Below are positions 1-57,790 of a stretch of 64,000 nucleotides of DNA, in pieces. Numbering within the stretch: position 1 is the first letter of the stretch; each line of letters begins with the position of its first letter. This DNA is from Raillietiella orientalis. Its lineage: Eukaryota. Location: contig JAYWIR010000127.1 in NCBI GenBank assembly GCA_036172245.1, positions 1-64,000 on the forward strand, read 5' to 3'. Made by a program: the position numbers and the translations under genes. The notes under the pieces were generated by a model. That model made no database searches, was not told where the DNA came from, and saw only the letters and a list, made by a program, of their open reading frames with translations.

Positions 1-572
1 TGGGGACAGTTCGGCATGCAACGTTCCCAACAGGAACGAAGGTTTCAAAAGGCCCCTTTGGTTGCGCTATGCCGCGGCCATCGGAATCCCCTGCGGCAAC
101 CCCAGGGTCGTTCTGAAAGCCCTTTTCGTTGCCGAGGCCCTTCGTCCAGCGGCCTCGTGAGCAGCCCTGTGCTGCCTTCGCGGGATCGTCGCCGTTTGGT
201 GCAAGGCTACGGGAGGACCACACGACCAGGGTCTATGCAGCCAGCATTTCAGTTACTGAGGAGGACGTTTAGATGATCCCACCTGGATCCAGGAATACAG
301 AAGGAGCTTGCCGTCATCCTGCGAAGGATGCAACGGCCCCACTAGCAACCGTGATCCCTTCCATTACCCTCCCAACGTTACTTTTCTTTTTGCTTTTGTT
401 TTTTGTTTTTCCCCTTCGCCCCTGCTGCCGTGGTGGACCGTACCGTTCTGCGAACCGGTGACGCAGCAGGCTCTGTATTTCATCGTGCGTGGCTGGATCA
501 ATGGTCCAGCCACTGCACATCTTTTTAAATGTTTATTTTAGAATAAACGTTCCGGGAAAATCCGGGTGAAAA
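1..572 (+). mobile_element. 3' end of LINE (subfamily A), with an internal deletion
   Basis: Collinear with the reverse complement of 41855-42380 and 42860-42905. Ends AATAAACGTTCCGGGAAAATCCGGGTGAAAA. Confidence 0.9.
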
Positions 573-1007
573 TCGAATGCCTTATGCAAATTTACTGCTA
601 CTGCAAAGGCTATCGGCCTTTCTCCCGTCCTTCCGCACTGGCGCTTACATTCGACAGAAGGTTCTGCAGCTGTTCGGCTGTCCGTTGCAACGCGCTCTTG
701 CAGCTTCCACCAGGTGCACGCGAAAAGAAGGTTCGCATCCATGGATCTTCCCGGTACAGCGTAAGACTGCTTAAGCTTACCACGGAATCCGCGACTTTTT
801 TTAAACGCCTGATTCACAGTTCCGAAAACAACCTGACGTTCGTATTCACTAATGTGATCGGACGCCAGTTGTTGAGTTGGCGCAGATCCCCTCCTTTCGA
901 AAGGGGATGCACCCTCGCTGAGCGGAAGGAAGAAGGGACATCGCTCGTCATCCTTATCAGCGTCGAGAGTCTGAGCAGCAGTGGGGCGAGTTACGTCTTG
1001 AAGCTCT
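573..1007 (-). pseudogene. LINE ORF2 RT fragment, distal part of the element at 1716-5150
   Basis: Translates to QSYAVPGRSMDANLLF...AVNLHKAFD. The frame continues from GENGLPAEFHQSF at ~1720-1760. Confidence 0.9.
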
Positions 1008-1715
1008 CTGTCACCCGGGTGCGCCGGGACGTTTATTACAAACTATCCGGGAACAGAGTTCCCGGACAAAGAGGAAAACAAGATACGAAGGGGGTGGGAT
1101 CTCCAACACGCATGTCGGTATGCTGAAAGTCCGGAACGGAAGCAAGGGGACTACAAATAAACTACTATAAAAAATAAAAATAAAAATATGGAGGACAGGG
1201 GACAGGGGTCTTTGGTGAGTCCGTTCCTTCCTTTCAAAACCGGCGATGGATGCCGGCGATCTCTCTCCTTACGTCCTGTGGAAGATGGGCCCACTCGGCA
1301 GCCGACCGCATGCTTGCGCTGGCTAATCCGGCGGGCTGACGAACGATGGCCAGCTTTTCCAACTCTCGGTGGGCCTTGTCGATGGCGCGGGTGCAACACA
1401 CAATTGCAACGACAGCACCCAAAGACAGGCCGCCTGGCGTGAAGAAGCGGCGCATCAAGTCCCTCGCGGCGTCCCCCTGGTGCAGGAGAGCTGAGGCCAG
1501 CCTCCGCCAAAGTCCTTAGAGGGCACCGCAGTGCAAAATCAGGTGCAGGAGCGTTTCCACTTCCCCACACCGCTTACAGTTTGGGTAGACAACTCCCCAG
1601 GAAACACGGTTCCTCCGTTGGTTGGAGTGAAAACCCCAATGCACCAGCATGATGACGTCCTGCTTCCACGAAAGGGGGAACATAGAAGTGTTCAAACAGG
1701 AGAAAGGGACCACAA
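1008..1715 (-). mobile_element. 5'-truncated LINE (~0.7 kb) inserted in sense orientation into an RT
   Basis: CKRCGEVETLLHLILHC zinc finger, 3' hairpin at 1012-1037, and flanking TSD GTCTTGAAGCTCT (995-1007) / GTCCTGAAGCTCT (1716-1728). Confidence 0.9.
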
Positions 1716-4700
1716 GTCCTGAAGCTCTGATGGAACTCCGCGGGCAGCCCGTTCTCACCTGGCGTCTTTTGTTTCTTGAGTCCTGCGATGGCGGAAGAAA
1801 CTTCCTTTAACGAGAAGGGCTCGTCGATACGGGCGCATTCCTCCTTGCCGATGCCGTGTGCACCCCGCGACAGAAGCAATTCTGAGAGGATTCTCTCCAT
1901 GATGGATTTGGCGTAGAGCAAGGAGAAGTGACGCCTTAGTGTTCGCCGTACTTCGGCAGGAGCGATGCATTCCCGGCCTTGGTCGTCGAGCAGAATTGCC
2001 GCTCCACACTGCCAGACCTGGCGCTCGGTCCTCGCCTTGTACTCTGCGAGGTGCCGGACTTCCGCACGTCTAGAGAAGGTGCGCGTATGCAGAAATTCTA
2101 AGATAATGGCCACGACTTCTCAAAAGCCGCGCGGTAGGAGCTGCAGAAGGAACCGGTTGCAAAACTCACAAACCGATCTTTTAAGATGGGCCCTGTGTGC
2201 GAGCCGCCGGATGACAAAGCCGCAAAGGAACTAGCGAAAATGTTCCGCCGCCTCCGAATGACTGAGTTATTCCGCCTGCATCCTTTAAACATTGTTCGGA
2301 GGTCCCTTGTTCGATGGGAGTAGCTCGAACTCCAGCCTGTCATACTCCGATAAGTAGGACGGCACCCTGACTCTCCTCCCCACTCGTGAGAGTAGTTGTT
2401 CATGGAGGTAGACGTGATCCACGCTCCCTTCCAGTCGAGTCTCGCCGGCTTCCTAGTTACGCGCTTGCTCTGACGCCGATGCCTCCTTAGCCGCGACCGT
2501 TCCGCCTGGGACCTCGTCGCGTCGGAAAACAGGTGGACGTTGAAGTCCCCTGAGACGAGAGGCGCTACTCTGGCTCCAGAGTTCCTGAGCTATTGGCTCT
2601 CCAGTTCGTCTAAAAACTCGATTCTTTCGTCGCGCCGAAGAAAGCCGCTCGGCGCGTAGACGTTCGTTAGGACGAGGTCGATTGAATCTGACCACTTGAG
2701 TACAAGTTGGCCCATTCGCCCTACCTGGTCGAATCGAACGCTGCGCACCGCTCCTGCCATCCTACTTTTTACGAGAAACCCGACTTTGCACGATTGTGCA
2801 GGACCTTCTTGCCAGTAGAGGGTGACACCCGCGCGCTGTTGAATTTCGGCAACCTCCGCGTGGGAGATGTGATGCATCTGCTGAAGGATCGCCAAGTCGG
2901 AATGTTGCAGGGGGCCTAAGACGCCGCGCCTCTTTCCGTCCCTACGCAGCATGTTCACGTTCCAACAAACTACGCTGAACCGACGAAAAGAGGAGACTTC
3001 CTGAATTAAGGCTAGGAAGGTGAGCACAGGTTTCTCGCCTTGACCGGCGTGTGGTCACGTGACAGAACAACTGATCTTCAAGACTGTACATCTCCATTCG
3101 AATCCGCCTGCTGGTTGGCGGGAGCTCAGAGGTGAGGCTTATCCCCTCCTCTTTGCTCCCCAGCAGCAGTTCCTCATCGGCAACCTCGCGATTACGGGTG
3201 TTCGGGAGGCGATTGTGCGGTTTCGGGCGGTTGTAGCGCTGTGTGCTCTTTCTGTCGGACTCTGGATCAGAATCCGACAGTCGAGGGCTTGCCAGGCGCT
3301 GCTGCTGTCTCCTGGAATTAGGGAAATCGTTCGCTGCCTGTTTCCTAGCGCTTTCTGCAACTGCGGCTGGGACTTTCATCCTCTTAGCCGCAGCAGCAGC
3401 TTTCCGCTCCATCTGCGAGAGGACGACTGCGCAGGAGGGAAGAATCGCAATCTTTTTATGGGAAGGTTTCGCGGCTTTCTTTCGCCCACTCACTTTCACA
3501 CAGAGCTGCGAAGACCTTGATGGTTTTTTTTAATTACCTTTCTCATCTGCATCCAGCCGTCTTCCTTCGCATCGCAGTTATCTTTGCCCTCCTGAGATGA
3601 CGCTGCGTCCGCGAATGTAAGAGGCGCTGCCTTGTCTGCCTGTTGATGTGCTGAATCCGCGCAGGCGTAAGCGACTCCCATAGCGATCGCGGAAGGCGCT
3701 GCCTCTTTCAGAACGGAGGATTGGCGCGTTGCGTTTGCGACCGCTGGAGGCACTGCTCTATTGGTTGTGCTCGCCTTAGCAGTTCCTTCTATGGCCGCAG
3801 TAGGCGCTGAGTCCGCGCGCGAGGACTGCGGGTTTGCCGGCTGTTTCAGCGCGGCACTCAGTGCCTGGGGCACCTTGGCCGCGGTAGCTTCAGACGGCGC
3901 GGTGTTCTTTGCCCGCGGCCGCGTTTCTCCCGTATCGGGCGAACGACCGCATTCCGCGCCGCTCGTCGAGGCCTTGGTACGAGGCTTCGCGGTCGTGATG
4001 CCGACAGTACGAGGCTCTTTGACCTTCGGCACAATGTCTCCTGCATTCAACAATTGGCTGCGAGGTCTTGTAGAAAGGTCGCATTTTTCGCGAGCTCCCT
4101 TCGGCACGGTAGCCTGAGGCTTCGCCGCAACGAGTTTTTTTAGGTTTTTCTCCCCTTCGATGGAGAGGGGAGGAAGAGTTTTCTGCGCATGCGCGCTCGA
4201 GGTTTTCGCAACGCTGTCCGAAGTTTTGAGGTTTCTTTCCCTCGATTCGCGGTGTTTATTTCGCGATGCGAAACGCGCTTCTTTCTTTCACTTTTCGTTT
4301 TTTAAAAAGAGCTCTGGGAACTTTTTTTTTGTGTGTCGGGCTCTTGGCAGTAACGGTCAGTGGCCGAGGGACACTTCGTAATGCGGTGACCCTCCGGCCT
4401 CCATTCCGCGCACAGAAGCGTTTGCCCCGCAAACCAGTCATTCCATTCACCTGCGGTCACGTGGGCATTGCCCGTTGATCCGCCGTCGTCAATCGCACTT
4501 GCGCGATCCCGCTGTGGTGGTCTTCGAAACCCTCAGCAGGGTATGGCAACCTCCGAGGCGCGTGAACGGAGGCGAATTTTTCAAGTGCCTCCATGACCTG
4601 GCGGTCCGTAAGGCACTTGCTCACTCCACTCAGCCGGACAACGAACGATTGATCCGCAGCGGTGGGGAGTATTTCCTGCCCACAAATGAGCAGCAGCGTG

Positions 4701-5150
4701 TGCAGCAAACGCTGCGTAAGGAGAGCGTCCTTACTGGACACCTCACAGTAGCCGCCACCACTTATGGACATGATGCACTCTAGCTGGCCTTTTTGAACTC
4801 CAATCCGTTGGAGTTCCTGGCCAATCTCGCGCCCATCTCGCTCAGGCAAAAGGACACTTACCTTATACCTGAGTAAAGGCGTGTAGTCATTTGCTACATA
4901 CGTTTGCAGCTCCAACGGATATAAAGCGAAGGTCCTATGGTAGCCGCGAGGGCAGCTACCTGGGCGAAGCTCCTCGCCGTCGGCGAGGACATAGCTCCTT
5001 GCTAGCAGCCGAAAACGCCATCTAAGGAACAGGTACCGTTCCTTTCTTGCGGCAGCTGTTCCTCTGCTCCCATTGCAGCACAGAAGCACAGCAGAACCAA
5101 AACACACAAGAGTCACCCTACCGCGGAGCGACGCGAAAGCACGTCCGTAC
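1716..5150 (-). mobile_element. 5' part of LINE: 5' end, degenerate ORF1 (~3000-5050), APE and linker (~1716-2990)
   Basis: VCWNVNMLR, TNVYAPSG and KKQKTPGENGLPAEF. ORF1 has CEVSSKD..SFVVRLSGV. The 5' motif GGACGTGCTTT is at 5136-5146. Confidence 0.9.
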
Positions 5151-6935
5151 GCGTCCGGCGCTGATGCGGGAGGCCGGAGATGTTCCCGCTTGTTTTCGCT
5201 CAGCAAATGTGCGGCTCCTAACGAAAGGCGGGGATTTGCGCAAACTCAGCAACTGGCAACCGATCACCTTGGTGAATTCGGACGTCAAGTTGTTCTTGAA
5301 GCTATAGGTCGCGCGGCTGGGGAGAATCACGGAGTCCTTGGTGAGTCCGGAGCACACGTATGCTGTTCCGTGGCGTTCCATGGACGCGAATCTCTACTTC
5401 GCGCGAACATACTTCGAGTTGCAGCAGCGCGTGGCGCAGCAGAGCCACGCAGCCAAAATCGCCGCTGCCAAAGGTAAGCGGCGGTGTTTAAGGCACGATG
5501 CAACGCCGGGGGCCTTCGCAGTCGCCGTCGATTTCTGCAAAGCATTCGACAGCGTAAACCAGGACCTCCTACTGGAGATTCAGGGACGCCTAGGTCTCCC
5601 GACGCACCTCAACGCCTACTTGCGCTCCTGCTGGCGCCACGAGTTATGTTGTATCTCTTTCAGCAGGCGCCACGTGTACGGCGTTCCCATACGGCGGGGT
5701 ATCAGGCAGGGATACAGCTTAAGGCCCCTGCTCTTCAGCATTATCTCTGAGTTTATGCTTAGGGCGTACAGGCTGATGCTGGCCAACCAGACGAGCTCCT
5801 GCTCAAGAACACCGGCCGTGGCCGCATATGCTGACGACCCTCTCCTGTTGCTGCCCATGTCCACCATGGCGTCCTGGCTCGAAGACTTCTTCGAGCACAT
5901 TCGTCGGAAGACGGGCGTAAGCCTCAAGAGGACCAAGTGCTTCGTTGTACCGGTGAACGCAAAGCGAGGGACTACTTTTGTTGCTGCCCCTCTTTCGGCA
6001 CACCAGGATAGGGTTTGTCTTCCAGCTGAGGCAGCTCTCCTTACTGCTGGAAGCCCAATGTTGGATCTCCTGCCGCCCCATGAACATTAATGCATGGCGG
6101 CAGGAATCTTTTTCATCGTGGGCAGCTTCCAAAGGGACGCCTCTGCAAGATCCTCGACGCCCACGACTACTCCTTAGACATAAATAAGACAAAGTCATGC
6201 AGGACAAGAAGAAGTCGGATCGCCTGGCCGCCACATTACTCGCCGCAGCACTGTGTGCCCTCAGGGCAAGCAACGACAATTGCCTACCTGCGAAATGGGA
6301 GCTCTTCTGCAGAATAGAGGGAGTAAGTAAGCTCCTAGGCAGCTTGAAGACAAAGGAGCTGTTGGAAACTGCCACGCTTCGTAATCGGCCTGAGGGCCTG
6401 CTTCGGTGGAGTGAACATTTAAGTGTACCCCTCGAAGAGATAGTGGTCCCCCCGTTTGTTTGGACAGCTCCGTGTTCCCCTTAAAGTGGAAACAAGATGT
6501 GCTGCTCTTTTTACACTGCGGCTGCTATTGTAATCGGCAGCGAGGCATCGTTTCCAGGGGAGCTGCTCTGCGAAACTGTTCGAGGTGCGGAGAGATCCTG
6601 TGTTTTCCGCACCTCTTATTGGACTGCTGTGACCTCCGTGAACTGTGGCGAAGGCTGATTTGAACCTTCCTACCGCAGGGAGACACTGCCATTGATGTGC
6701 TGCGGCGCTTCATCAGGAGGAATGGATTTTCGGTAGGCGCGGTTGTCGCAACCATGTGTGCATTCGCGCCATCGTGAAGGCCCGCTACGCCCTGGAGGTG
6801 TCAGCGCAGCGAAGGGAGTCTCACCGGTTTGCAGCAGAATTGATGGAACAGGCTGCTAGGTGGCCTCATCTTCGTGACAAGGTCAAAAAGGACATCGACG
6901 GCATTCATCGCCGGTTTACAGACTTCTTCGTATGC
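5151..6935 (+). pseudogene. LINE ORF2 fragment (RT to C-terminal zinc finger)
   Basis: GGDLRKLSNWQPIT, DFCKAFDSVNQ, RRGIRQG, AYADD, CSRCGEILCFPHLLLDC. Similar to 32248-33870. Confidence 0.9.
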
Positions 6936-8527
6936 TCTAGTTGTCGTACTGGGAAGCACCTCTCCAAACCAGGAACCGGGAGATTTCCAAAGACTCTCGA
7001 TAGGAAAGGTAGGAGAGCAGGAAGATCGCCACACAGCGAAGACTTCCAGCTCCAACCCGCAATCCCTTCCTTAATTGGCAAAATCCCAATTGAACGCAGG
7101 GTCCTCTGCGGAGGCTACAAAACCCGTAGCAAGAAGGGGCGCGCCACGTAAAAACACGCTGCAGGCAGCCTCCCCTTCACGGACTCGAAAATTTTCCCCA
7201 AGTCCGACAAGCAGTGGGGTGAATTTATTTTCCATTTTTGAAAACACATTCATTCCACAATCACATTCACACAACATACGCAATTTACATCACTGTGGAG
7301 TCCTTGGGGATATTACAAGTTCTGCTTTCAGGATGGGTTTCCTGACGTTTGGTCCCTGTCGTCGTCTTCAATCCTTTTCAGGATAAGTCGGTAGGTCCAG
7401 GCATGGATTCGTCCACAAATCCTGTAACCGATCTCCTTCTTGATGAGTTTTTGAGGGATCTCCATCGGAGATGCGCCTCTCCTGGCTTTCCTCATCTTCC
7501 ACCACCGCACAAGTATAGCGGTGGTGAAAAGAGCAATGGTCATCCTCACCATGGGATTGTAACAACGACCATTACCATCTCCCTGAAACATTCCCTCGAG
7601 GATCTCCATTGTGGAGCTGGTGGTGAGTAAATTGATCCTTTTACAGGTTGAGCAAGTCGTGTAGCAATCTGTGACACGTTAAGACGTGAAGTCTCGGTGT
7701 CGCCACAAGCCTCGCAGACTCGATCTTCCCGTCTTTTGGTGAAGTACTCAAGTCTGGATCCGCTTTGGTTTCCTCCATGATAAAACATTAGGAGGTTGTC
7801 CTGCGTGTCCGGCAGGAAGGTCACTCCTCCAGATCGGTGCTCCAAACGCTAACAGGTTGATTCGTTCACTTCCGTAGCGATCCGCGGCTTCCTGGAGGGC
7901 ACTGATCTTAACGTGTTTTTTGATGAGTTTTTGAAAGGTTTATTTTGGTTATCCTAGACCACAAGAGGTCGTTGTGGTTGATCCACACCTCGTGGGTCAT
8001 GTGGGTAAACCTTTTTAACATCATCTCTAGATACGTAAGTATACGAGTGTGATGTAGCTACCCTCCTCGCCTCCACTCCTGGATTCGTTTCAGGGTAACA
8101 CTGGACCGCTGGTGGATCCAGCTTATCGTGTCCGGAGGGACTGAAAGCATCCAAGGGATCACCAAATGGACTCGTCCTGCCAGAGTTCCCTACTTCTTGG
8201 CACGATCTTGATTTTGTGCTTTCGCACCAGCCGTTGCTTCCTCGTCCAGGTTGGGTCGATTTTTGTCCATTCGCCTGCTCGGCCTAGCAGCGCAGTCATC
8301 AGGCCTTTCGAGTTGTTCAACAGCAACGCGTAGGCCCTGTGCGCCGCATACGGCCAGTCATCCCAGTGAGTGGCAATGTCCAGGATGTGTCGCGTATCCA
8401 TGATTTCTATGGAGTGTTCAAGCGACTTCATCCCGGAAACGCCTTCTTCCCTAAGACGACACAGGGGTTTCACTCGAACACTTGGACGATAGTGGCCCCA
8501 CAGTGTTTTTCTCTGCAGTCTGTCGAA

Positions 8528-9301
8528 CTACCCCGTGGTGTTCTTGTTTATCGTTGTCGAGGCCGCCCCGAAAAGCACTTTTGAGAGGAGTACTCCGTTG
8601 TATATGTTGGCCTTTCGCTTCATCCCAACGTCAGTTCGGGTGTACTTGGCTGCTTCCTTGGCCGTTCTCCCTAGGATCTCGGTCCACAATAGCTTCGACG
8701 CGGAGTCGTCGCCAACGTAGACACCCAGGTTCTTGGCCGTGTCCACCATTCGGAATCCTCTCCTTGCTAGAGCGGAGAGATCGAGGATACCAACGGGCAA
8801 GAGCTGGCTTTTCTGGGCGTTGATCTTTAGACCCAGGCCTTGATCCATCAGGTCTACCACATCCAGACACGCTCGTTGATTTCTCTCTCCCTTGATAAGG
8901 AAGAGTAGATCATCAGCGTATGCCAGATGGGTAAGACGCTGGCCATCGATTATTATGCCTTGCAATCGTCCGTTCTTCTTGATAAAGGACGACAACGCCT
9001 CCATGTAGATGACGAACAGCATCAGACTTAGCGAATCGCCCTGCCGGACTCCCCATTCCATCCGGATTGCTGATGTCTCCTGGCTGTTGACTTTGATTCG
9101 GCAGTACTGGTTCTTGAGTACCACCCTCACGAAGTTCCTCAAGTGTTCCCGAAGGCCTAGCTTCTCGAGAACCTTCAGCAGCATTCCTTGGTCAATTGAG
9201 TCGAAAGCCTTCTCCATGTCAGAGAACACCAGCGCCAGGTTCTCGTCGACGTATCGGCTGAGTCCCACGGTGGCTTGAACACACTTGACATTGTCCGACA
9301 T
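8528..9301 (-). pseudogene. Reverse transcriptase domain of the divergent LINE ORF2
   Basis: 257-aa ORF with FSDMEKAFDSIDQ, WGVRQGDSLS, LAYADDL and KNLGV. Confidence 0.93.
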
Positions 9302-12768: not shown

Positions 12769-12859
12769 ACTCTAGTCCACACTCACTTTCTTCTGGATAC
12801 TTTCCCTCTCCGGGCACACACGATCACAATCAACTGATAATCGTCGTTGTGCGCGCAAT

Positions 12860-13240
12860 TTCATGAGCCACGAAGCAAGGTCACCGACTCGGCAAGAGAG
12901 AAGGAATCTCCCGACTGCCAAGAATGTGACTGCGCTGCCTCCTTTTAAAGGCGTGGCGAAAGCGAAGCCCCTAAAGGCGGCAGCGAAAACTCCGGAGGTT
13001 TCCGAGATAAAAGTCGCGGAAGCGTCAGAAAATCGTGACGGCTGATGGAAGATTTTTCTGTTCTCCTGTCCGAGAGGAGAAAAGAAAAATCTCCCAAAAA
13101 AGCCTCGCAACCTCCATCCGTTGGCTCTTTAAAGGCCAAAAACATTCGCGTGAACAAGAAATCACGCGCAGAGGGTTCTTCTGCTTGTGGAAGAGATGTA
13201 CGAGTACGTGCACGCCTGCAACTTGTTCGCTAACGATCCT
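12860..13240 (+). pseudogene. Possible remnant of a LINE ORF1 C-terminal region
   Basis: Lys/Ala/Pro-rich low-complexity peptide with 'DG*WK..RRKEK', resembling the 'GWQxV..RK' segment of the other ORF1s. No diagnostic motif. Confidence 0.3.
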
Positions 13241-13483
13241 GTTATGGCGACTTCAGCGGACCATGTTTTCCTCGTTGAACACTTGCTCTCCCGTGTAGGT
13301 CAGAGAGGTCCCATGCTGTCCGTGCTTTCAGACCACAACAGGCTCGAGTTCTAGTTGCTCTTGTTAGGCAAGAGGCCCATAAACTGTGTTTGAAGGATGC
13401 CAGCAAACTGGTTATTTTACCCGGAGGCGGCGGAGCATCTTCGCCAGTACCTCCGCGACTTTGCCATAAGTGAGCTTGCTTCT

Positions 13484-45653: not shown

Positions 45654-46038
45654 TACTGTTGGGAAGATTAAAGTGTGGGGAAGCCCTCCTCTTGCGAGGC
45701 GGGTGGGATGTCCATGGGGGTTTCGGCCTTCTCAGGCACCTGAGGCACCTGTTCGGCCTCCACTTTTTCTATCCCCTCCGTGTCCGCGCGTGGGAGTCTC
45801 TCGGGCGACGGGTCCCGAGAGTTTCCCACGCTCATGGCACCCTCGTTTGCGGAAGGCATCTCTTCCCCTTCGACGGGGGAGACGAGCTTCCTTGGCTTTG
45901 TGGACTTACGTCCAGCCTTCTTGCGCGGTGCCGTGGAAACGGAGGTAGCGCTCCCGGCCTCCACCGCGGGGTCGGAAGTGGGGGACTCCTCAGGGGAGGC
46001 CGGACGCCTTACGGCCTTCTTGCCAGCCTTGGAGGTTT

Positions 46039-49000
46039 ACACCCGGGTACGCCCGGGGCGTTTATTTTTTAAAAAAAAACAACTCTACATCCGCGGTACA
46101 AGGCCCCGCTCACGGTCATATGCACTGGACCTGCCGGGACGCCGGGACGCAGCCCAGCGTAGCGTTCCTCAGCAGCGAAGGGGGATGGGGATAAAACAAA
46201 AAGAAAAATAAAAAACATAAACAGACAAAAAGAAGTTGGAGGGCAGGGAAGGGATCTCTGAACGCTGTGAGGAGGGCCCATCCGTTGAAGGAAGCCCTTG
46301 AGGTCCGTCCGTATATTCCCCAGTTGGGGCCATCCGGCAGCTCTCCGCATGAAGCGTTGGGCGTATGGGACGACATCCCTCGCGTGTGGACCCACTCCTT
46401 TGTTATTGGCGTCGCTCCATGCCGCCACGATGCCACGGACACAGCACAAGGCTGCAATGGCTGCGGCTGGCTGCAGTGCGTCCTTCACGAAGAGGGGCCG
46501 AAGAACGTCTCTGGGGGTGCTGCCCGTAGGGAGCCCTAGGGTCGCTTCGAACCGTTCCCAGAGGGGTCGGATGGCAGCACAATCCACAATAAGGTGGGGA
46601 AGCGGCTTTCGCTCCCCGCACCTGGCACACGCAGGATTCACAGCTCCCCTCGTCCAGTGGAAGCGGCGCGCGTTGCAGGGTAGACCCCAGTGCAACAAAA
46701 GCAACGCCGACTCTTGCCACTTAAGGGGCAGGATCCTGGATTCCTTTAATACCGGGGGCCACTTCAGCACATCCGTAGGGATGGCGAGCAGCTCGCCCCA
46801 TCTCATTAGTCCACGCGGTTGGACGCTCGGGGTCGTGGCGTCCGCCAGTTCTCCTGTGGTCCAGCCGATTAACATCTTCTCCCTAACTGCGATCTGGCAG
46901 GTGACTTGCCACCTCGGCTTCTGGCAATCCTGAAGCGCCCTCAGGAGGTAGGGCATCGCCGTAGCAAGGGGGGTCATCAACGCCCACCTGCGACTCCGAG
47001 GAAATTCCAGTATTTCCCGCAGGGTGCGGTTGGCGTATGGGCCGATTCGCAGGCAGTTCATGTGGTTTTCGCTCCTCCGGTTCAGCTTAGCCCATATGCC
47101 AGCAGACTCCTCTAACCAGGCGGAGGAGTTGGCGGGGCCACAAACCATCCAACCGTTTGTCTTCGCAGAGGTTGCTATGCGTCCGAGCATAAGGCCGCAT
47201 CTTCGGATCTTCCGGCCAGGGCACAGAAGAAACGACGCGAGTCCTTCGCATCGGGACACACGCCTGGCGAGGTGGCGGGCCGGAACGCACCAAGGGGTGC
47301 TCCACATCTTTGCTGCGATGGCGAGGGTTCGCCACCGCAGCTGGATTTCCACGTGCTCCAGCGTCAGGAGGCCAAGGCCGCCGTCCCGACGCGGAGCGCA
47401 CAAGTCCTGCAGAGAGACTCGGGGCCTCCCCTTGCCCCAAAGGGCGATGCGGAGGAGGTCCTTCGTCCTCTTTTTGCATTCTCTGGGGGCAAGGCAAACA
47501 AAGCAAGGGGCGGAGGATGGGGGCCGCAAAAGCGTTCCAAACCGCGGCCCGTTCCGGCAATTGAAACTTCCCTTCCAGGAACGGGCCGATCGCCGTCTCG
47601 ACTTTTTGAAAACAGCTAAACCACGCTTCCGCAGGGGAGTAGTCACCGAACGGCACACCAAGGTACTTGAGGCACCTCGCCGTGGGGATCCCCAGACGGA
47701 CCCAGTCCTGCTGCCCTGCCCACGCCGCACCTACTGGCACCACCGACGACTTCGCCCTGTTGACCTGCAGTCCGGTCCCACGGCTGAGCAGATCGAAGAA
47801 GTCTCCGACCGCCTTCGCCGGGGTGGACATAGGTAACAGGAGCAGAAGGTCGTCGGCATAGGCTGCTACGGCGGGCGTGCCGGGACACGAGCTAGGCAAG
47901 GAGGCCAAAGTCACCCTGTAGGCTCTCAGCACCAACTCAAAGTAGGTGCTGAAGAGCAGGGGACTCAGGCTATCTCCCTGCCTGATGCCCCACCGCACCG
48001 GCACGCCATGCACCTTCTGACCGCTGAAAGAGACGGAAATTATCGCATGGCGCCAGCAGGAGCGCAGGTAGTTGATCAAGGAGGGTGGGAAGCCCATGCG
48101 ACCCAGGAGCTCCAACAAAAGCCCCTGGTCAACACAGTCGAACGCCTTATGGAGATCGACTGTGAGCGCTAAGGCCCCCTTCCCCGCCCGGGAGTCCATT
48201 CCCTGCGCTGCTGGCGGCCCCAAAGTGGGGTTGCCGATTTTTCCTTTTCCTTCCTTTTGACACCTCTGCGCGTGCATCCACGTGCTCGCGAAGAAGAGGT
48301 TGGCATCCATACCTCGCCCGGGAACACCATATGTCTGCTCCGGGCTAATTATGGATTCTGCCACCTGCCTCAGACGCGAAGCCCATAGCCCGGCAATCAA
48401 CTTGGTGTCCGTATTCACAATCGTGATCCGACGCCAGTTGTTCAAATTCCTAAGGTCTCCCCCTTTCGGAAGGAGCCTCACTCTGGCTGACCGAAACGAG
48501 GCGGGAACATCGCCTTCGTCTCGGATCAGCCTTGTCAGCTGAAGCAGCAGGGGTGCCAGCTCTTCCGCGAAGCTCTGATAGAACTCCGCGGGCAAGCCGT
48601 CTTCCCCTGGAGCTTTCCGCCTCTTGAGCCTTTTGATACTGGCGAGAATTTCGCCGGTGGTAAAAGGCTCATCGAGGCTTAACGACTCCTCCTCCCCTAT
48701 TGCCGGGGCACCATCCGGAAGCAAGAGCCGAGAGGCATCTTGATCCGGGGGCGCCCTGGCGTAAAGGGAGGAATAATAACTCCGCACGAGATGCCGTACC
48801 GACGCCGGGGACGAACATTCCCGGTCCTGGTCGTCCAGCAAGCTGGCCGACCCGGATTGCAGGCTTGGCGTTCGGCCCCGGCGCGGTACTCGGCCAGGCG
48901 ACGGACATTAGGGGTTCGCTCGTACCTACGGGTCTGTAAATAGGCCCGATGGTTGCGAGGACCCTCGCCGAATCCGGAGGGCAGGCGGTATAGGGGGAAC

Positions 49001-51690
49001 TGCTCGCAGAACTCGCGGACCGATTCCTTAAAAAGGTCCCAGTCTTGGAGATTCCGGAGCGTGACGCCTCTCAGGTATTCGCGAAGGTGTTCCTTCGCAC
49101 CTGAGAGTCGCGTCCAGTCCCCCGGCAGACGCCAGTCTCTGGATGGCGGTCCTTTGTCGCGAGGCCGCATCTCGAAAATTAACCGGGAATGGTCCGACAA
49201 CGTTGACGCAACCCTCTTCCGTTTGCCGACCCGTGAACACAGGTCAGCGTCGAGGAAGACGTGGTCGATGCTGCGGACCATTCCCCTCTCACCCGCGAAC
49301 AAGTTGCGCGCACGCATGGCGGCGCACAACTCGTTCATCGCGTTCACCTGTGTTTCCGGCTCACCTGTTAGCAGGCGGAGATTGAAATCTCCCGCTATCA
49401 GGTGAGCCTTCCGCACGCTCGTGTTCGCCAGCCAGTCGCGCTTCAAGGATTCAAGCAGCCTAGTACGGTTGCTGTATCCCTTTTGACCGGTTGGGGCGTA
49501 CACATTCGTGACGATCAGATCGATCGAGTCGGACCAGCCGAGAGTCAGCTGACCGACCCGACCGTCGTCATCGAAGCGCACGCCCTTCACGGCAGCGTCG
49601 ATGGCCGGCTTCACGAAGAACGCGACCCCGCAGGTGTTGCGGATGCCGCATTGCCAGTACAGCCGATCCCCTGCGATCATCTCGATCTCCTGGACGTCTG
49701 CCGCGGTGATCACGTGGATCTCCTGCAACAGGGCCAGGTCGAACTCCCGCAGGGTGTCGGCTGTATCTCGCCTGTTACCGTCGTCGCGCACCCCGTTGAC
49801 ATTCCAACAGGCCGCGCGAAACCGACGGCGACTGGCGAGCCCAGGTGTTACTCCTGGGAAGATGGCAGTGCGGCGTCCGCCACCTGCTGGGGCGAGACGC
49901 TAGGTGGAGCAGGGGGGTCAGGTGCTGAAGGCACCTGGTCCCCCTCCTCCATCGGTGCCGGCGCGTCGGCCGGATCACCCGCAGGTGGAGTCGCGCCTAC
50001 CTGTTCGCCCTCCTCCATGGGGGCGGGCTGTTCAGGGTCGGCGCCTGCAGGGGGGACTTCACCCCCTGTTCACCCTCCTCCATGGGGGTGGCCGCATCGA
50101 CGGCTTCCGAGCGTGGGAATTCCTCCTCCGAATTTCCCACGCTGGCGACGGCTTCCGTCTTCTCCTCCTCGCTGGTGGAGGGGAGGCGCCTCCTGGGCTT
50201 CTGGGACTTGCGTCCCGACTTCCTGGGGGGTGCCTCCGAGGAGGAGGATGTGCTTCCGGCCTTCAGGTCTAACTCACCTTTGGGGGCCTTCCTCGCCGGA
50301 GCCGGCCTTCGCACGACCTTGCGCGAGGGGTTCTCACGCTCGGCCAGCGTGACCGCGAGCTCCTCCGCCGCCTGCGCGAACGCGGCGTCCGCGGCTTCGA
50401 CCGCCGCTATGTCGCGCGGCTCACCCTCTGTGTAAACAGAGGGTTCGCCGTCGCGAGCCTCGGGCGCAGCCGAAACGGCAAGGGGAGGATCGACGCTCCG
50501 GGTGGCAATCTCGGGAACGACGATTCGTTCCAGTGCCACCGTGCACTCGCGCAAAGTTTTCGAGCGCGGACCGGGTTTTTTCGGCTAACCGGCCGTCTTG
50601 CGCTCTTAGCTTTCCGCGGGTGGGAGTTTCCTCGGCTTTCTGGCCTCTACAAGCTGCCATCCCTCTTCGCCTTCCACCGTTTCAGAAGGTTTATCCTCCG
50701 GCTTACGCGCCGGAGGTTGAGGTGTTGGCAGCTTGTGCTGGCCCTTTTCTACTTTAGGTCTAGAGACCTTCGAAGCACGTTTCGCCTGCGCTTTTTTCGC
50801 GGCAGGGGGAACCGGGGTGGGGCGTTTGGGACACACGCGCCGAACGTGGCCCCGCTCCCCGCACAAATGGCATTGTATATTGGGACACCTTTTACGTAAG
50901 TGTTTCACGGTATCACAATGCCCGCAATACCGGGGCTTCCCTACATACCACAGGTCGACGTTTTCTTGCGCCACCTGTAGTTTGTGGGGAAGCCCACAAT
51001 TCTCCCGTACGGTGACCCGCGCTGCAGCCTGCCCACCAAAAAGGCTATCGAAGCCGTCGAAAATGGAAGGTTTCGGCCACAGTGCGTGCACCTCACCGTA
51101 CTTTCTCAGTTCCTCACCAACCGCTGACCGCGTCATGCGGCTGGTGATGCCAGTCATGTGGACCACCACGGAGCGGTCCATGGATACTGGCAGGATCTTG
51201 CGGCCGTCTACGTTTAGCGGCGCATGGATTAGGAGTTGAGCCAAGGTGACATCTTTGCAGACCACCTCGACCCGCTGCCCGCCGCTGAGGACGGAGAGGC
51301 CGTCCAGATCCTTCTCTGTAACATTCGCGTCCTTCAACGCTTTGTTGAAGGCGCGCGCTGTCCGGCCGTCGAACAAGTTGCCTACCTGGTATACAAGCGA
51401 TGGCTTGTACCCGGAGGCCTTGTATGCGGCCATCTCCGCCATGGGTTCTGCGCTGGGCGCGGCCACCATGGCGCTCCATGTCCTCGGCGTGGCCGGGGAT
51501 GATTCCGGGGCGGCTGACCCTGCTCCAGTAGGCTGTGGGGGCGAACTAGCCTCCCCCACTCCCACCTCCATCGCGGTGTCCTCTGGCGTCGTGGCCATTG
51601 GACACCGACGATGTACACAAAACACCACACGGAAGAAAAAGCGCTTTCCTACTACTCTTTGGGGAGTGAAGGAAAAACACGTCCTCCATC
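46039..51690 (-). mobile_element. Full-length (~5.65 kb) LINE, subfamily B; best-preserved copy, inserted in sense orientation into ORF1 of a subfamily A element
   Basis: 5' motif at 51671-51684, ORF1 MATTPEDTAMEV, ORF2 in three long overlapping frames and a perfect hairpin CCCGGG-CGTA-CCCGGG. TSD-like 46026-46038 / 51693-51705. Confidence 0.94.
46250..49850 (-). pseudogene. ORF2 (APE-RT-CCHC), broken by about two frameshifts
   Basis: Track ORFs 48697-49791 (APE), 47087-48841 (RT, AYADD, KYLGV) and 46069-47730 (CARCGERKPLPHLIVDC). Confidence 0.94.
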
Positions 51691-51692
51691 TG

Positions 51693-53047
51693 GCCGCGGA
51701 GGGTTCTGGCTGCAACGAAGCTGCCAGCTCCTCCGCGGCTCGCGCGAAGGCTACGTCATCGATGGTGGTGTCCATGACGGGCGCCGCCGCCGGCTCGCTC
51801 CTCTCGCTGTTGACTGTGTCAACAGAGGGGAGGTCGTCGGTAGGGGCGAGTTCCTTCCGGCAACGTTCGGCCACATCGAGAACGCGTTCGACAACGTCGC
51901 TGCACTCTTTAATGATCGCGCTACATTGCTCTTTCTTCTTCTGTTGGTAGGCGATTCTCCTTTCCATCCTCCTCTCCTTCTTTGATTTTTTGGCCGCTGC
52001 CACTTGCCAATAAGTCTCCTGGCCGGCTCCCCTAACTTTTTCGGCGTTGTTCGCCGGGGTCTCGGGTGCGGCCTGGTTCTTAGGCGCGGGTGGCACAGCC
52101 TTCGCGGCAGCTTTCGCCGCCAGCCTTTTCTGCAGAAGCCGGGCGCGTTTTTTAATGTTTCTCTTGGAAACCACCCGCACTGCTGCTTTTGGGCACACCT
52201 TTCTCCTGTGGCCCATTGTGCCGCATACTTGGCACTGCACGTTGAGACACCTCTTTTTGAGGTGGCCCGACGTATTGCAGAAGCCACAGTATTTCGGCTT
52301 CCCCACATACCAGAGGTCGTCGGTTTCGCCTTCGACCACCAGTTTGTGGGTAAGAGTGCAGCCCTCCCGAACGGTCACGCGCGCAGCAGTGAAGCCGTGT
52401 TGCAGCTCTGTGTAGTCCTCGAAAGGACTAACTTTCGTCCACTGCGCGTGGACCGTTCCAAACTGTTCCAAAGCGGCGCGAACCTGTTCTTTGCGCATTC
52501 GCGCGGTCACGCCTAACAGGTGGACCACCATGCTGTGGTCCGCTGTAGTGGGGAGAAGCCTGAGCGTCCCCATCACAACGGGGGTTTCAAGCAGTCTTCG
52601 GGCGAGCTCTGCATGTTTGCAGATGACCTCAATGTAGTGACCCCCGCTACGGATGGTCATAGCGCTAAGCTCCTCCTCTATCACATCGAAAGCGCGCATG
52701 CCCTTCAAGAAGGCGCGCGCGCTCTCTAAAGAATATAAATTGCCTACCTTGTAGAACAATGAGGGGTTGTACCCCTCCTTAACATAGGTCGACAATTCCG
52801 CCGCGGCTGCAGGCGATGGCGCCGACACAACGGCGCTCCACGCTCGCGCTGCTGCGGGGACCGATTCTGTGGGGGCGGATGCCCTCACCTCCATCGCCTC
52901 TGGGGGCGACGTTGCCGCTTCCCCCGGGCCATCCCTGGTGGTCGCGTCAGGCATCGCTGCCTGATCGACCACCGAACCACACGACGCTTGCACTGGGGGA
53001 GACTTCCTGGCACGAGGAGCACCGAGAAAACACGTCCACCCTAAAGC
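51693..53047 (-). mobile_element. 5' end and ORF1 N-terminal part of the subfamily A element at 41855-46038
   Basis: 5' motif at 53024-53037, MPDATTRDG and CGFCNTSGHLKKRC / CQVCGTMGHRRKVC. Confidence 0.92.
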
Positions 53048-55138
53048 GCACAAGGCGGTCGACTGCGTGGACCAGGATCTTCTTCTGGAGTTCCTGGGAC
53101 GCATGGGCTTCCGTCTCTCCGTACTGACCTACCTGCGCTGTTGCTAACGCAGCTCGCTAATTAATATCTCTTTAAGAGGTGAAATGGCGTACGGCGTGCC
53201 GCTACGGCTGGGTATACGGCAGGGCGACAGCTTCAGTCCCCTGCTCTTTAGCACCTACTTCGAGTTTGTGCTGAGAGCTTATAGGGTGACTTTGTAACCG
53301 TTGCCGAGCTCGTGCACCAGCACGCCCGCCGTAGCAGCGTACGCCAACGATCTTCTGCTCCTGATGCCGATGTCCACCCCGAAGGAGGCGGTCGGGAATT
53401 TTTTCGATCGGCTCAGCCGCAGGAACAGACTGCAGGTTAACAGATCGAAGTCTTCGGTGGTGCCAGTTGGTGCGTCGAGGACTGGGCAACAGGATTGGGT
53501 TTGCTTGGGGATCCCCACGGCCAAGTGCCTGAAATACCTGAATTTGCGCTGGGATACTATTCATCTTCGGATGCGTAATCCGGCTGCCTCCAAAAAGTGA
53601 AAACGGCGATCCGCCAGTTCCTGGAAGACAAGTTTCTCCTTCAGGAACGGGCTGCGGTGTGAAACACGTTCGCGGCTCCCATCCTCCGTTTCCTGCTTTT
53701 TGTTTGCCCCGTCCCCAGAGAGTTGAAAAAACGGACGAAGGACCTCCTGAGAATTGCCCTCTGGGAAGAGGGAGGCCCCGAGTCCCATTGAAGGACATGT
53801 GTGCTCCACGTCGGGGTGGCGGTCTCTGCCTCTTGACGATGGAGCGAGTACAGATTCAGCTCGATGGCGAACTCTCACCATGGCAGCGAAGTTATGGAGC
53901 ACCCCTTGGTGCGTTTCGGCTCAACTCGTTGCCAGCCGTGTATCCGGGACGGAGGGTCTCGCGTCTCATCTTCTGTGCCGTGGCAAGAAGATCAAGAGAT
54001 GCGACCTTCTCCTGGGACGCATGGTAACTCTGGCTAAGGAAAACGGCTACTTGGTATGCAGCCCCGCCAACTCCTTACCATGGCTGGAGGGGACAGCTGG
54101 CACGTGGGCGAAGACCAATGAGAATGATGAAGAGATGTGGAACTGCCTGCGACGCGGCGCCTATTCCCGCTGCTCTGTGCGGAAAATACTCCAATGTTCC
54201 GCGAGAAGAACGTGGGCAGGGACAACCTCCTAGCTACGGCGATGCCTTTCTTGAGAAGGGCGCTCTCCAGCAGTTGCAAGCCTAGGTCGCATGTCTCCTG
54301 CCGTATCGCATGCAGAGAGAAGAAGATCGGATGGACCACGGGAGAACTGTCAGACGCCACGACCCCGAGTGCCTTCTTGAGAGGACTTCTAAGATGGGAC
54401 GATCTGCTCGGCATCTAGCCGGATGACCTGAAGTTGCCCCCGGTATTCATTAATTCGAAGATCCTCCCCTGGTGTGCGAGTAGTCGGCTCTTCTGTTGTT
54501 GCATTGGGGCCTACGCTGCAACCCACGCCGCCACCACTGCACCAGAGGTCGAGTAGATCCTGACTGCATCAGGTGTGGGGAGCGGGTAACCCTCCCCCTC
54601 CTCCTGCTTTATTGTGCTGCACTCCGAACCCTGTGGAAACGTCTTCGTGCATCCCTACGGATCCAGGAGGGCAGCCAGCCCAGAGACGTTTTCCGGCTTC
54701 TGTTCGTGAAGGATGCAATGCGACCAGGCGCTGCCCTGGCTGCACTTTGCTGCGTCCGTGGGATCGTGACGTGCTGGAGCGACGCAAGAAGACCGAGCCA
54801 CGACAGGGATGCCGTCGTACTTGGAGTCCCCTACCTGCGGATTACGACCAGATGGTCCCACCTGCGAATTATGCGGACGGACCTGGAGGGCATCCTGCAA
54901 AGGATGGACCCTCCTCCCAGTGGTCAGTGATCCCTCCCCAACCTTCCGAAATCTTATTGTTTGTTATGTTGTATTTTTCCTTTTGTTTTTCCTTCCACCC
55001 CATTTGCTGCTGAGGAGAGTCGCGTCGGTCTGCGTACTGGCATCCCGGAAGGTCCTGTTGAGTCTACCGTAGTGGGGCCTCGTACCACTTATTGTAGAGA
55101 ATTTATAATAAACGCCTCGGCGTGACCGGCTGGCAACT
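53048..55138 (+). mobile_element. LINE 3' half; continuation of 41037-41854
   Basis: Resumes at HKAVDCVDQ, then AYAND and CIRCGERVTL. Terminal motif at 55107-55133. Confidence 0.9.
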
Positions 55139-55400
55139 GGCAACTTGGCGTCCGTATTGACGATCGTGATCGGACTCCAGTTCTTTGAATCTCTGAGATC
55201 TCCCCCTTTCGGAAGGAGCCTCACTCTGGCTAAGCGAAACGAGGCGGGAACATCGCCGTCGTCTCGGATCAGCCTTATCAACTGAAGCAGCAGGGATGCC
55301 AGCTCTTCCGCGAAGCTCTGAAAGAACTCCGCGGAAAAGCCGTCTTCCCCTGGAGCTTTACGCCTCTTGAGCGTTCTGGTACCGGCGAGAATTTCGTTGT
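55139..55400 (-). pseudogene. LINE ORF2 pre-RT fragment
   Basis: IRDDGDVPASFRLARVRLLPKGGDLR..NWSPITIVNTDAKL. Confidence 0.88.
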
Positions 55401-55402
55401 TG

Positions 55403-57410
55403 GTGTGCCATCCGGATATGCCGTAGCATTTATTAATCTAATCTTTACAGAATTAGTTCATAAATTCAATGAACAGTTTGTTGGGGAAAACACTTGGCTT
55501 TCCCACGCTAGCAGGCGTGTCGGGAGCCGGTGCCTGGACCGGCAAGGTCCTCTCCCGAGGCGTAGGGGAATGGGAAACTGGAACAAAAAGAAACAACAAG
55601 AGAAATAATGGGGAGGGAAACAGTTTTATGATGGAGTGAGGGGCAGGGAAGAGATCACTGTTCACCTGGGTTGGGCCTCGGATTCCTATTCAGGATGCAG
55701 ACAAGTTCTGTTCTTTTAGTGGGAAGTAGACGCCAGCATTTCGCCGTCTCCTAAGAGATCGTCGTCCAGTAAATGGCGTACCTGCATCTTGGGCCTCTTC
55801 ATATTGCGTGCCAGCTTTGCACGATGCTGCGCACCCATCAGACGATTCGTAGAGATGTAGCGGGGCGCAGACCGTCACGCAGAAAGAGGCGAAGGAAAAC
55901 TTCCTTCGGGTCGCCTACTGGAAGATTAAGGATTGGTCGATTCGACTCCAGAGTCCAACCAGGGCGACACACTCGAGGGTGAGATGCGGGAAGGTTTTCC
56001 TTACAGAGCACTCGACACAGCGGGCATCCACATTCCCCAGTGTCCAGTGAGACAGGCATGCTCTGCTTAACAGTCCTCAGTGCAGAAATAGCAACGCCGT
56101 CTCCTGCCACTTTAACGGAAGAGTGCCGCAATCCAAACACGCTGAGGGCCACTTCACCTCCTCCGAAAGTATACCTAGCAGCTCTTCCAAGCGCACAAGT
56201 CCGTGAAGCGGGACGTTCGGGTGACGGCTTCCGTTAGCTCCCGATTCGTCCACGCCTTTAAAGGTCTTCTCCTGCCTCGGATGAAGCATGATAGTTTCCA
56301 CGATGCTTCCTCGTTGCTGCTCCCAATGTTCTCCAGGGAGCAAAGAACGGGGGCAATTGGAGTGAACGGAGCCCACAGAAGCATCCTGGGCGTGTAGATA
56401 TTCTCCTTCAGCGGCTGTCGAGCGTACGTTCGTCGACGTACGCAGCTGTATTCCGCTCCGCTCGTGCCGTTCATCTAAGCCCACGTTGACACTGACTCCT
56501 AAAGCCAGGTAGTGCAGTTCTCGGGGAGGAATGAGATCCAAATGTTCTCCCTCATCAGGACGATCATCTGGCGCGGATGGAAGCCACAGTTTTTGCTGAC
56601 GTTGCGCTGGTAGGCCACGAGGATGGAGGACAATCCTCCGATGGCGGTCCCTTATCTGGCGAGAGGCCATGCCGGTTCGCACGTAGGCGTCATCCATAAG
56701 CTACTTGGAAGTGCTTGCTTCCGAAGGTTGATTTGTTTTTCCATGCGCTCCATCGTCAGGAGGCCCAGACCACCGTCCCTGCGTGGAGCGCACAAGTCTT
56801 TCATTCGGACTCGCGAAATCGCAGTGCCTTAAAGAGCAGTCCTCAAGAGGGCTCTGGCCCGTCTCTGTATGATGGGAGGGGCGGGGCAAACAGAAAGTAA
56901 GGGGCAAAGAAGGGGGGCCGCGAACGCGTTCAGCACTGCAGCCCGCTCCTGCAATTAAAACTTGCAGTTACAGAACGGGCCGATCGCCAACACCATCTTT
57001 TGGAGACGGTCGGAGCAGGCTTCTTCTTGATAGAAGACGCCCAACAAAACGCCAAGGTACTTGAAGCACCTGCCCATAGGGATCCCCAAGCGGAACCATT
57101 CCGACCGCTCGGCTTGAGCCGTAGTCGAAGATGTCGGAACAATCATAAATTTTTCCCTGTTCAACTCGAGGCCCGTCCCGCGCCGCAGCAACTCAAATCA
57201 ATCTTCGAGAGCCGACGCCGAGGTGGACCCGGGGAGCAGGAGCAGAAGGTCATTGGCGCAGGCCGACACGGCAGTTGTGCCGGCACACGAGCTCGCCAGA
57301 TTTGCCAGAGTCTGCCTGTATGCCCTTAGCACCAGCTCGATGTAGAAGCTAAAGTGACCAAGTGTCGCAGACGAACGCTTTACGCAGATCGACTGCGACA
57401 GCAAGGGTTA
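55403..57410 (-). mobile_element. Decayed LINE 3' half with an internal RT deletion
   Basis: AVDLRKAF is joined almost directly to FSFYIELVLRAYR. Also ACAND, FKYLGV and WQETALLFLH, with a degenerate terminal hairpin at 55409-55434. Confidence 0.85.
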
Positions 57411-57790
57411 CGGGCGTGGCTCTTCCACCTCTTTCCACTGCTTTCTTGCCCTCGTCAGAGAAGCGATATTTAAAAATGTGCCGTGATTCATGTGTCGAGG
57501 CGTAAGCCCAACCGTTTCGGGGTCAGGGCCGTTTTCAGTGGGCGTGTCGCTAAACGCGTGATTTCGCGCAATGGTTTCCAACTTTCCCACAAACTCCATA
57601 TCGGAGGCGAGTTCGTCGACGTCAGGTGAGTGGGTAAACCAAAGTTTTGCGGAATTTGTAAGTCGTTCGGGCATCTCAAAAAGAGATGCCTGGACGCACT
57701 ATGCCCAACTTGTGGCGAGAAGGGTCATACCAAAGTGGTGTGCCCAAAGAACGCCGCTCCGCCACCGTCGAAATCTCCCCTAGGAAATAA
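57411..57790 (+). pseudogene. LINE ORF1 fragment (double CCHC knuckle); right edge of the cluster
   Basis: GKPKFCGICKSFGHLKKRCLDALCPTCGEKGHTKVVCPK. Confidence 0.9.

Follow-up and report, generated by a model that had tools for sequence, protein, structure and literature searches.

A nested LINE island in which insertions recur at a few positions of resident copies

Nested clusters of long interspersed nuclear elements (LINEs) form the centromere DNA of several green algae, and the literature searched, as far as its text was available, offers no explanation of how the LINEs of such clusters find their own copies. The same question is raised by the DNA analysed here, a 64,000-nucleotide stretch of Raillietiella orientalis (GenBank assembly GCA_036172245.1, contig JAYWIR010000127.1, positions 1 to 64,000; referred to as the window), most of which is occupied by LINE pieces lying inside one another. 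An earlier reading made from the sequence alone had taken this array for a LINE family that targets its own relatives in the manner of the Zepp elements of Chlorella. Self-nesting L1 clusters are already known; what is new in the window is that insertion into the resident copies was not random and recurred at a few positions of the element itself. With a probability of roughly 0.6, we read the locus as a Zepp-like self-targeting LINE island, formed by target-primed reverse transcription with a sequence-level preference for a few positions in the resident copies. All results come from this single 64-kb window, and the statistics from the 12 readable 3′ junctions or the 15 junction events within it.

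A nested and decayed LINE island

How far does the island consist of LINEs? With the innermost element, A, as the reference, searches with A itself (blastn), with its open reading frames (ORFs; tblastn) and with a family profile built from 16 element pieces (nhmmer) gave one concordant map of ~20 elements on both strands (Table 1). LINE sequence accounts for ~99% of positions 1-57790: a main lineage of the L1 superfamily covers 49790 of the 57790 bases (86%, nhmmer) and a second lineage, X, a further 11%, in agreement with the sequence-only reading, which had seen about 20 LINE pieces abutting with virtually no host DNA. The complete list of gaps of at least 30 nt in main-family coverage comprises 1-50, 3024-4487, 6915-13190, 57408-57453 and 57769-57790, of which 3024-4487 is the diverged ORF1 region of the element host1, bracketed by host1's ORF1 and endonuclease matches. 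Long stop-to-stop ORFs occur on both strands, and a Pfam scan of 16 matched RVT_1 in four and Exo_endo_phos in two; in a further set of 40 (30 from the island gaps and 10 from the flank) the sole match was the endonuclease of X. No Pfam domain of another transposon class, be it integrase, transposase, protease or helicase, appeared in these 16 + 40 ORFs, and no satellite DNA was found in the island, where Tandem Repeats Finder reported one small array only, inside X. An Rfam search of the window returned no family. The GC content is 0.51-0.62 from position 1 to ~57790 and 0.43-0.49 beyond. The observed/expected CpG ratio, 0.85 in the flank, lies at 0.94-1.01 in the island, and the lack of CpG depletion argues against long-term CpG methylation decay of the old copies.

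The order of insertion can be read where a host resumes beyond its insert. B lies inside C, which lies inside D; A lies inside E, which lies inside F; and a short element, ins, lies inside the reverse transcriptase (RT)-coding host1, which resumes at model position 3082 versus 3089. The five nestings named in the sequence-only reading were rebuilt to within a few bases by blastn, tblastn and nhmmer. Target-site duplications (TSDs) of 14 nt (E into F, the two copies differing at 4 of 14 positions), ~12-13 nt (C into D) and ~14 nt (ins into host1) were found; B entered C with a small target deletion, not a TSD, and the insertion of A into E was blunt. Altogether there are six two-sided nestings, one of them with a 1061-nt gap, and about nine one-sided junctions. 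The gapped case is D, which probably lies in G, the pieces G1 and G2 then being one element with 1061 nt missing between them. The one-sided junctions include the series F in M, J in F, I in J, H in I and G in H, which suggests a much deeper nesting chain, although we do not claim the full chain. Large deletions at the target site could account for the gaps at 18184/32247 and 15763/34202, provided that the flanking pieces are in each case one element. The short fragment N was tried as the 5′ half of I and rejected, since it is nearest to host1 (70%, versus 61% to E).

Could the nesting have been produced by the assembly? A collapsed or chimeric assembly of dispersed repeats might imitate it, and the window comes from a single assembly. 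X1, the only public DNA run listed as sharing words with the window, while no RNA run was listed, provided short contigs of a relative that bridge no junction verifiably. The copies are, however, 50-89% identical overall and thus too diverged for mis-joining, the hosts resume to the base with diverged TSDs, and the window contains no N, all of which makes such an artefact very improbable. Compared over 44000-63900, the X1 contigs (word share 0.16) are 90-99% alike, with a summed word depth of 8-40 across the ORF2 region of A versus 0-3.3 across the flank, which hints that the relative carries many copies.

The island is old and decayed. Pairwise identity between copies reaches at most 89% overall and 93% locally, no element is intact and there is no sign of current activity in the window. 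Even A has two stops after ORF1 and at least two frameshifts, one being a private 1-nt deletion that splits the endonuclease and RT frames and another lying near nt 4190 of the element; in B the longest ORF is 354 aa. A frameshift common to A, B and D had been considered and was rejected, since the alignment places the 1-nt deletion in A alone. Such age, together with the diverged TSD copies (as at E into F) and the deletions and rearrangements in the array, would suit a passive graveyard, in which random genome-wide insertions survive only in a gene-poor, low-recombination region. A graveyard would nevertheless be expected to hold several transposon classes, whereas ~99% of the 57.8 kb is LINE sequence and only LINE domains were found. 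Equal enrichment of other transposable element classes, which the sequence-only reading had named as the mark of a generic graveyard, was not seen in the ORFs scanned with Pfam, where RVT_1, Exo_endo_phos and CCHC were the only matches. Nor are the recurrent positions and the hot zone described below predicted by it, and we give the graveyard only a small chance.

Recurrent insertion positions in resident copies

Where, then, did newcomers enter the resident copies? Junctions were converted to model coordinates and coincidences were checked in nucleotide alignments, which revealed four recurrent sites. At S1 (model ~2699, in the endonuclease-RT linker) D and B meet G1 and C with their 3′ ends at one common column, and B and J meet C and F with their 5′ ends, again at one common column. 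At S2 (model 3522) E and f1 have their 3′ ends directly past ..AAGGCGTTCGA in F and host1, and the ..GCGTTCGA that precedes the cut holds the codons of the RT motif KAFD. S3 (model ~3250-3265) falls in the NTDxKL codons, where the 3′ end of F adjoins M, while the 5′ end of H adjoins I ~18 nt upstream, as expected for a TSD. At S4 (model ~2620) the 3′ ends of I (on J) and H2 (on N) lie within ~4 nt of each other; the insertion of I into J had been considered an S1 event, a placement rejected when a longer-context alignment put the junction at S4. Each of the four sites was used in two or three events and every insert is antisense to its host, implying that the nicked primer strand was the host's sense strand. 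Alpha inserts (B, D, J and F) occupy S1 and S3 and beta-type inserts (E, f1, I and H2) S2 and S4, H being left unassigned.

To what extent would chance place junctions in this way? Under a null that drew random positions for the 12 3′ junctions, weighted by the presence of each model column in the window, the three coincident pairs within 5 nt, which involve six of the 12, have P=0.0008. A stretch of 902 nt, at model 2620-3522, takes up nine of the 12 (scan P=0.0011); this hot zone comprises the endonuclease-RT linker and the N-terminal RT coding region. When the 15 junction events were set against a uniform model, six coincident pairs were counted (P=1e-5 to 6e-4, depending on the tolerance). 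Target abundance is highest in the 3′ half of the element (depth 10-12 versus 7-9.5), which nevertheless received only one of the 12 junctions.

The coincidences could also have been copied, if a host-plus-insert composite had been duplicated, or spread by gene conversion in the array, and had then diverged. Mosaic identity points to exchange of this kind: E and I are 93% identical at model 3280-3500 (the first ~250 nt of I) and 63-72% further 3′, and A and F are 89% identical at model 2705-3240, just past S1, and 70-74% elsewhere, the zone at model 2705-3240 being one in which M takes part as well. Such patterns suggest that subfamilies have exchanged sequence by gene conversion, recombination or template switching, perhaps close to junctions. 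Moreover, insert and host identities are similar at S4 (63.8 versus 58.2%) and for B/C2 versus J/F1 (77.7 versus 76.5%), where by the divergence criterion alone the junctions may be old duplicated ones. At two sites, in contrast, divergence is far greater between the hosts than between the inserts, which speaks for independent hits: the inserts E and f1 at S2 are 86.4% identical and their hosts F and host1 66.5%, and at S1 the inserts B and D are 74.7-89% identical and their hosts C and G1 60-67%. No copy is particularly close to G1 (60-66% identity to each of the others), and F resembles A (89%) more than C (76%). In addition, D contains C and C contains B, so that one junction lies inside the other element, and the inserts differ in length, D being 5′-truncated and B full-length. 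For these reasons we hold duplicated junctions to be quite improbable.

A different account dispenses with sequence recognition. Integration could be governed regionally by chromatin state, whether CENH3 centromeric chromatin or heterochromatin, in which case relatives would be hit only because the region consists of them, and repeated positions would reflect a weak local endonuclease preference or the accessibility of transcribed copies, for example with the sense strand displaced in R-loops. Centromere-specific LINE clusters are documented in green algae (PMC8226300, PMC3446292, PMC11005252; here and below, statements about these reports refer to the portions of their text that were available), and the island also harbours X, by its sequence a different LINE lineage. 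The six 3′ junctions at positions used once and the lack of a shared nick motif suit this account too. Against chromatin as the sole guide stand the three pairs within 5 nt and the 0.9-kb hot zone, both unexpected on that account, and the apparent dependence of site use on the subfamily of the insert. We consider regional targeting unlikely, while allowing it, as the strongest of the rivals, a real chance.

Several observations weigh against a sequence-level preference for positions in resident copies. The sample is small (12 3′ junctions from one window), six of the 12 lie at positions used once, three of these in sense orientation, and the antisense bias (9/12 3′ junctions) is not significant (P=0.15). 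No common nick motif was found across S1-S4, where the primer ends are loosely T-rich and then continue with a purine, and the presence of X fits regional rather than sequence targeting; the similar insert and host identities given above for S4 and for B/C2 versus J/F1 are a further reservation. The nesting is also incomplete, since the window lacks the second halves that F, J, I and M should have, and the insertions of D into G and of G into H/H2 leave gaps of 1.06 kb and ~1.37 kb (model coordinates), respectively; with several junctions one-sided, deletions or rearrangements must also have shaped the array. Finally, the palindromic CCCGGG arms of the 3′ terminal motif (see below) could form a hairpin, but a structured 3′ hairpin was rejected because none of the 7 predicted pairs shows a compensatory change, that is, it lacks covariation support.

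Two simple modes of site choice were likewise rejected. One is that the RNA of the insert finds its site by homology, which is unlikely given an insert-host identity of just ~55-69% across the target zone, insufficient for RNA and DNA to pair. The other is a preference for the best-conserved nucleotides, which fails as well: the 24-nt window at S1 ranks at the 13th percentile of conservation, and those at S2-S4 at the 72nd-80th. Recurrent self-insertion sites are not described in the literature searched on nested or target-specific non-LTR (long terminal repeat) retrotransposons and on ZeppL, the original Zepp papers being outside that search.

Element ends, proposed mechanism and known LINE systems

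What kind of element would select such positions? ORF1 of A carries two CCHC knuckles and is gag-like, and ORF2 combines an apurinic/apyrimidinic (APE)-type endonuclease, an RT and a C-terminal CX2CX7HX4C. In a search of 1.84 billion representative proteins the closest matches to the RT were two metagenomic fragments (70% identity), all other proteins among the 150 best matches being at most 39% identical in the RT. The nearest full-length relatives combine Exo_endo_phos, RVT_1 and zf-RVT; the few that are named are L1-type proteins of charophytes and plants (24-30% identity), and no named green-algal Zepp was among the matches. The domain set and the nearest relatives place the main family in the L1 superfamily, isolated within it. 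The second-best database match, the 1555-aa gene model P0011, contains at least three RT copies of a distant relative in the same orientation (29-31% identity); in the organism it comes from, LINE copies in tandem were probably mis-predicted as one gene.

All 12 readable 3′ ends have AATAAA followed ~20 nt later by ..CCGGGTG, and the main family shares a conserved 27-nt terminal motif, AATAAACGCCCCGGGCGTACCCGGGTG. Between 0 and 7 bases follow the terminal ..CCGGGTG (AAAA in C, E and f1; GCAAC(A/T) in B, D and F), and none of the 12 ends has a poly(A) tail, with at most 4 A each. At the other extremity, six elements share the 5′ end ..GGACGTG(T/C)TTT... Model position 2-3 is reached by six elements (A, B, E, H, J and host1), C and G1 start at model ~176-187, and only D, ins and O are clearly 5′-truncated. 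The short non-A tail GCAAC(A/T)(C) past ..CCGG(G/C)TG belongs to alpha-type elements (B, D and F, at 21230, 18184 and 55132), O has the tail GCACACC at its 3′ end (55409), and the tail of F repeats neighbouring host bases (GCAACT GGCAACT). Most copies also share a conserved TGTA(A/G)AG ~20-25 nt upstream of AATAAA, for example at 29715-29730, 41890-41900 and 46080-46090. A metagenome scan with the 3′-end motif gave a single match, L001, which was rejected as a chance match without LINE homology.

These features are consistent with the following mechanism. One L1-superfamily lineage with at least four diverged subfamilies would insert by target-primed reverse transcription into copies that it had left earlier. 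The nick would fall on the sense strand of the resident copy, with a preference for a small set of positions within the endonuclease-RT linker and the first RT motifs, and the newcomer would consequently lie antisense to its host; different subfamilies would favour different positions (alpha S1/S3, beta S2/S4). The RNA probably ends ~20 nt past AATAAA, in the conserved terminal motif, and would be copied without poly(A) or with at most 4 A. We infer that the endonuclease or the ORF2 protein recognises the S1-S4 sites, and the RT probably recognises the terminal motif, not a poly(A) tail. A bolder version, which we put forward tentatively and rate at somewhat below even odds, holds that the lineage homes to specific coding positions in its own relatives, the codons of the catalytic RT motif KAFD and of NxDxKL among them, in antisense and at subfamily-specific sites, the lineage thereby providing its own safe harbour and knocking out a competitor with every new copy.

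Were this true genome-wide, recognition of the element's own sequence could be separated from recognition of centromeric chromatin, for which the window supplies a testable clue in the recurrent positions, their single orientation and a use that appears to follow the insert subfamily. The targets listed for site-specific LINEs would be joined by one of a new kind, the RT gene of the element itself, and TE-based (transposable element-based) centromeres would gain a simple mechanism for their growth and purity. Sequence-level self-homing, not chromatin targeting, could then build pure-LINE, Zepp-like and possibly centromeric islands, and the island described here may be a chromosomal domain such as a centromere.

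How does the island compare with known systems? Among target-specific LINEs, R1 targets 28S rDNA, Tx1L (of the Tx1 group) the Tx1D transposon, and TRAS and SART telomeric repeats. Such APE LINEs show independent insertions at the same nucleotide of a repeated target in fixed orientation. The island resembles them in the repeated hits at the same nucleotide and the fixed orientation, and the target of Tx1L is also a mobile element. It differs from them in that the newcomers enter coding sequence of their own relatives, at several sites instead of one, and in that only half of the readable 3′ junctions lie at a recurrent site, whereas nearly all copies of a target-specific LINE occupy its target.

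Zepp has a poly(A) tail at its 3′ end, unlike the elements in the window. Zepp elements of Chlorella and Coccomyxa are L1-type LINEs that insert into their own copies, with one cluster per chromosome (PMC3446292), ZeppL forms nested L1 clusters in Chlamydomonas and its relatives (PMC8226300), where the clusters bind CENH3 (bioRxiv 10.1101/2025.03.28.645958), and Chlorella centromeres are also TE-built (PMC11005252). The likeness to Zepp lies in an L1-type LINE with a gag-like and an RT ORF, in nested self-insertion clusters (PMC3446292, PMC8226300) without satellite DNA, and in a GC content above that of the surroundings (61% versus 53% for the genome in Zepp, PMC3446292; 0.52-0.62 versus 0.43-0.49 here). 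In contrast, the island spans at least 57.8 kb, whereas the clusters of C-169 (Coccomyxa subellipsoidea) measure 1.5-42.3 kb, and six of its elements reach the 5′ end and two more start at model ~180, whereas Zepp arrays consist mostly of 3′ ends owing to frequent 5′ truncation (PMC8226300). Recurrent positions with antisense orientation are likewise not reported for Zepp in the available portions of PMC3446292 and PMC8226300. ZeppL-1_cRei and its relatives in Chlamydomonas and other core-Reinhardtinia likewise occur as nested L1 clusters that are tightly confined in position, extend over tens to hundreds of kb and contain little satellite DNA (PMC8226300; bioRxiv 10.1101/2022.06.16.496473), but those clusters are ~60% ZeppL and otherwise mostly other TEs, compared with ~99% LINE here. 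The resemblance to Zepp is one of behaviour only. The self-targeting proposed by the sequence-only reading is supported by the nesting and the LINE-only content and, beyond what that reading could draw on, by the recurrent positions; the likeness to Zepp does not extend to the missing poly(A) and the many copies that reach the 5′ end.

Feature map, island edge and lineage X

Table 1. Elements and other features of the window, in order of position (model, coordinates along the main-family element).
Feature	Positions	Strand	Description
f1	1..568	+	3′ part of beta-subfamily LINE, model 5092-5621 (nhmmer, alignment); 3′ end (..CCGGGTGAAAA) adjoins host1 at recurrent site S2
host1	571..5148	-	LINE reaching its own 5′ end, model 3-3522; ins inside; cut at S2 by f1
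ins	1012..1716	-	5′-truncated LINE 3′ end, model 4914-5621; sense in host1 at model ~3085
K	5160..6914	+	gamma-subfamily fragment, model 3128-5378, internal deletion; start adjoins 5′ end of host1
X	6915..13190	-	separate LINE lineage (Pfam, phmmer)
N	13191..13483	+	short endonuclease-region fragment, model 2323-~2620; broken at S4 by H2 3′ end
H2	13484..15763	-	3′ part of beta-like LINE, model ~3340-5621; possibly 3′ half of H
G1	15764..18183	+	5′ part of LINE G, model 176-2700; broken at S1 by D 3′ end
D, 3′ piece	18184..18794	-	model ~5026-5621; terminus ..CCGGGTG + GCAACAC
C, 5′ piece	18796..21229	+	model 187-2699; broken at S1 by B
B	21230..26856	-	alpha subfamily, full length (model 3-5621); lies antisense in C, at S1
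C, 3′ piece	26857..29764	+	model 2698-5621; AAAA tail
D, 5′-truncated body	29766..32247	-	model 2525-5026; holds C
G2	32248..34202	+	3′ part of gamma LINE, model 3761-5621
H	34207..36317	-	5′ part of LINE, model 2-1969; cut by G 3′ end; 5′ end adjoins I at S3
I	36314..38653	+	beta LINE, model 3247-5619; 3′ end adjoins J at S4
J	38654..41036	-	5′ part of alpha LINE, model 3-2622; 5′ end meets F exactly at S1
F, first piece	41037..41856	+	model 2698-3522; broken by E at S2, directly past KAFD codons
E, 3′ piece	41859..46038	-	beta subfamily, model 1366-5621; AAAA tail
A	46039..51690	-	innermost, most intact element, 5652 nt
E, 5′ piece	51691..53047	-	model 2-1367
F, second piece	53048..55132	+	model 3506-5621; begins again with 14-nt TSD; GCAACT tail; 3′ end adjoins M at S3
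M	55136..55404	-	short RT fragment, model 2997-3265; 88-89% identical to A
O	55409..57407	-	5′-truncated LINE, model 3484-5621, ~175-nt internal gap
P	57454..57790	+	ORF1 fragment with CCHC knuckles, model 568-~900, cut on 3′ side; island edge
flank	57791..64000	.	GC 0.43-0.49; no LINE homology

Is position 57790 the end of the island? The sequence-only reading had noted that the array stops sharply at ~57790, and LINE homology does end at ~57770-57790, where the GC content falls from 0.53-0.62 to 0.43-0.49. Since the last piece, P, is cut on its 3′ side, which is impossible by reverse transcription, the edge must be a secondary break or an insertion of other DNA, and 57790 is not necessarily the true end of an island of at least 57.8 kb. 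In the flank no self-similarity and no repeat were detected, and Pfam gave nothing above the cut-off for all 85 flank ORFs of at least 45 aa, DUF6520 being a sub-threshold match. The break at 57366 was considered as a third S2 event and rejected, as it is better explained by the internal gap of O. A stop-free frame of 840 aa at 50606-53128 on the minus strand crosses the A/E junction at 51690; it has no Pfam match, and we attribute it to chance read-through in GC-rich DNA and do not regard it as a fusion gene.

X carries a CCHC-knuckle ORF1 (~11620-11680), an APE endonuclease (10488-10964) and an RT (8531-9361), the last of which is closer to database proteins (P0014, P0011 and P0012) than to the main family (phmmer). 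The small array found by Tandem Repeats Finder is a 27/48-nt tandem repeat at 12378-12544, in the ORF1 region of X.

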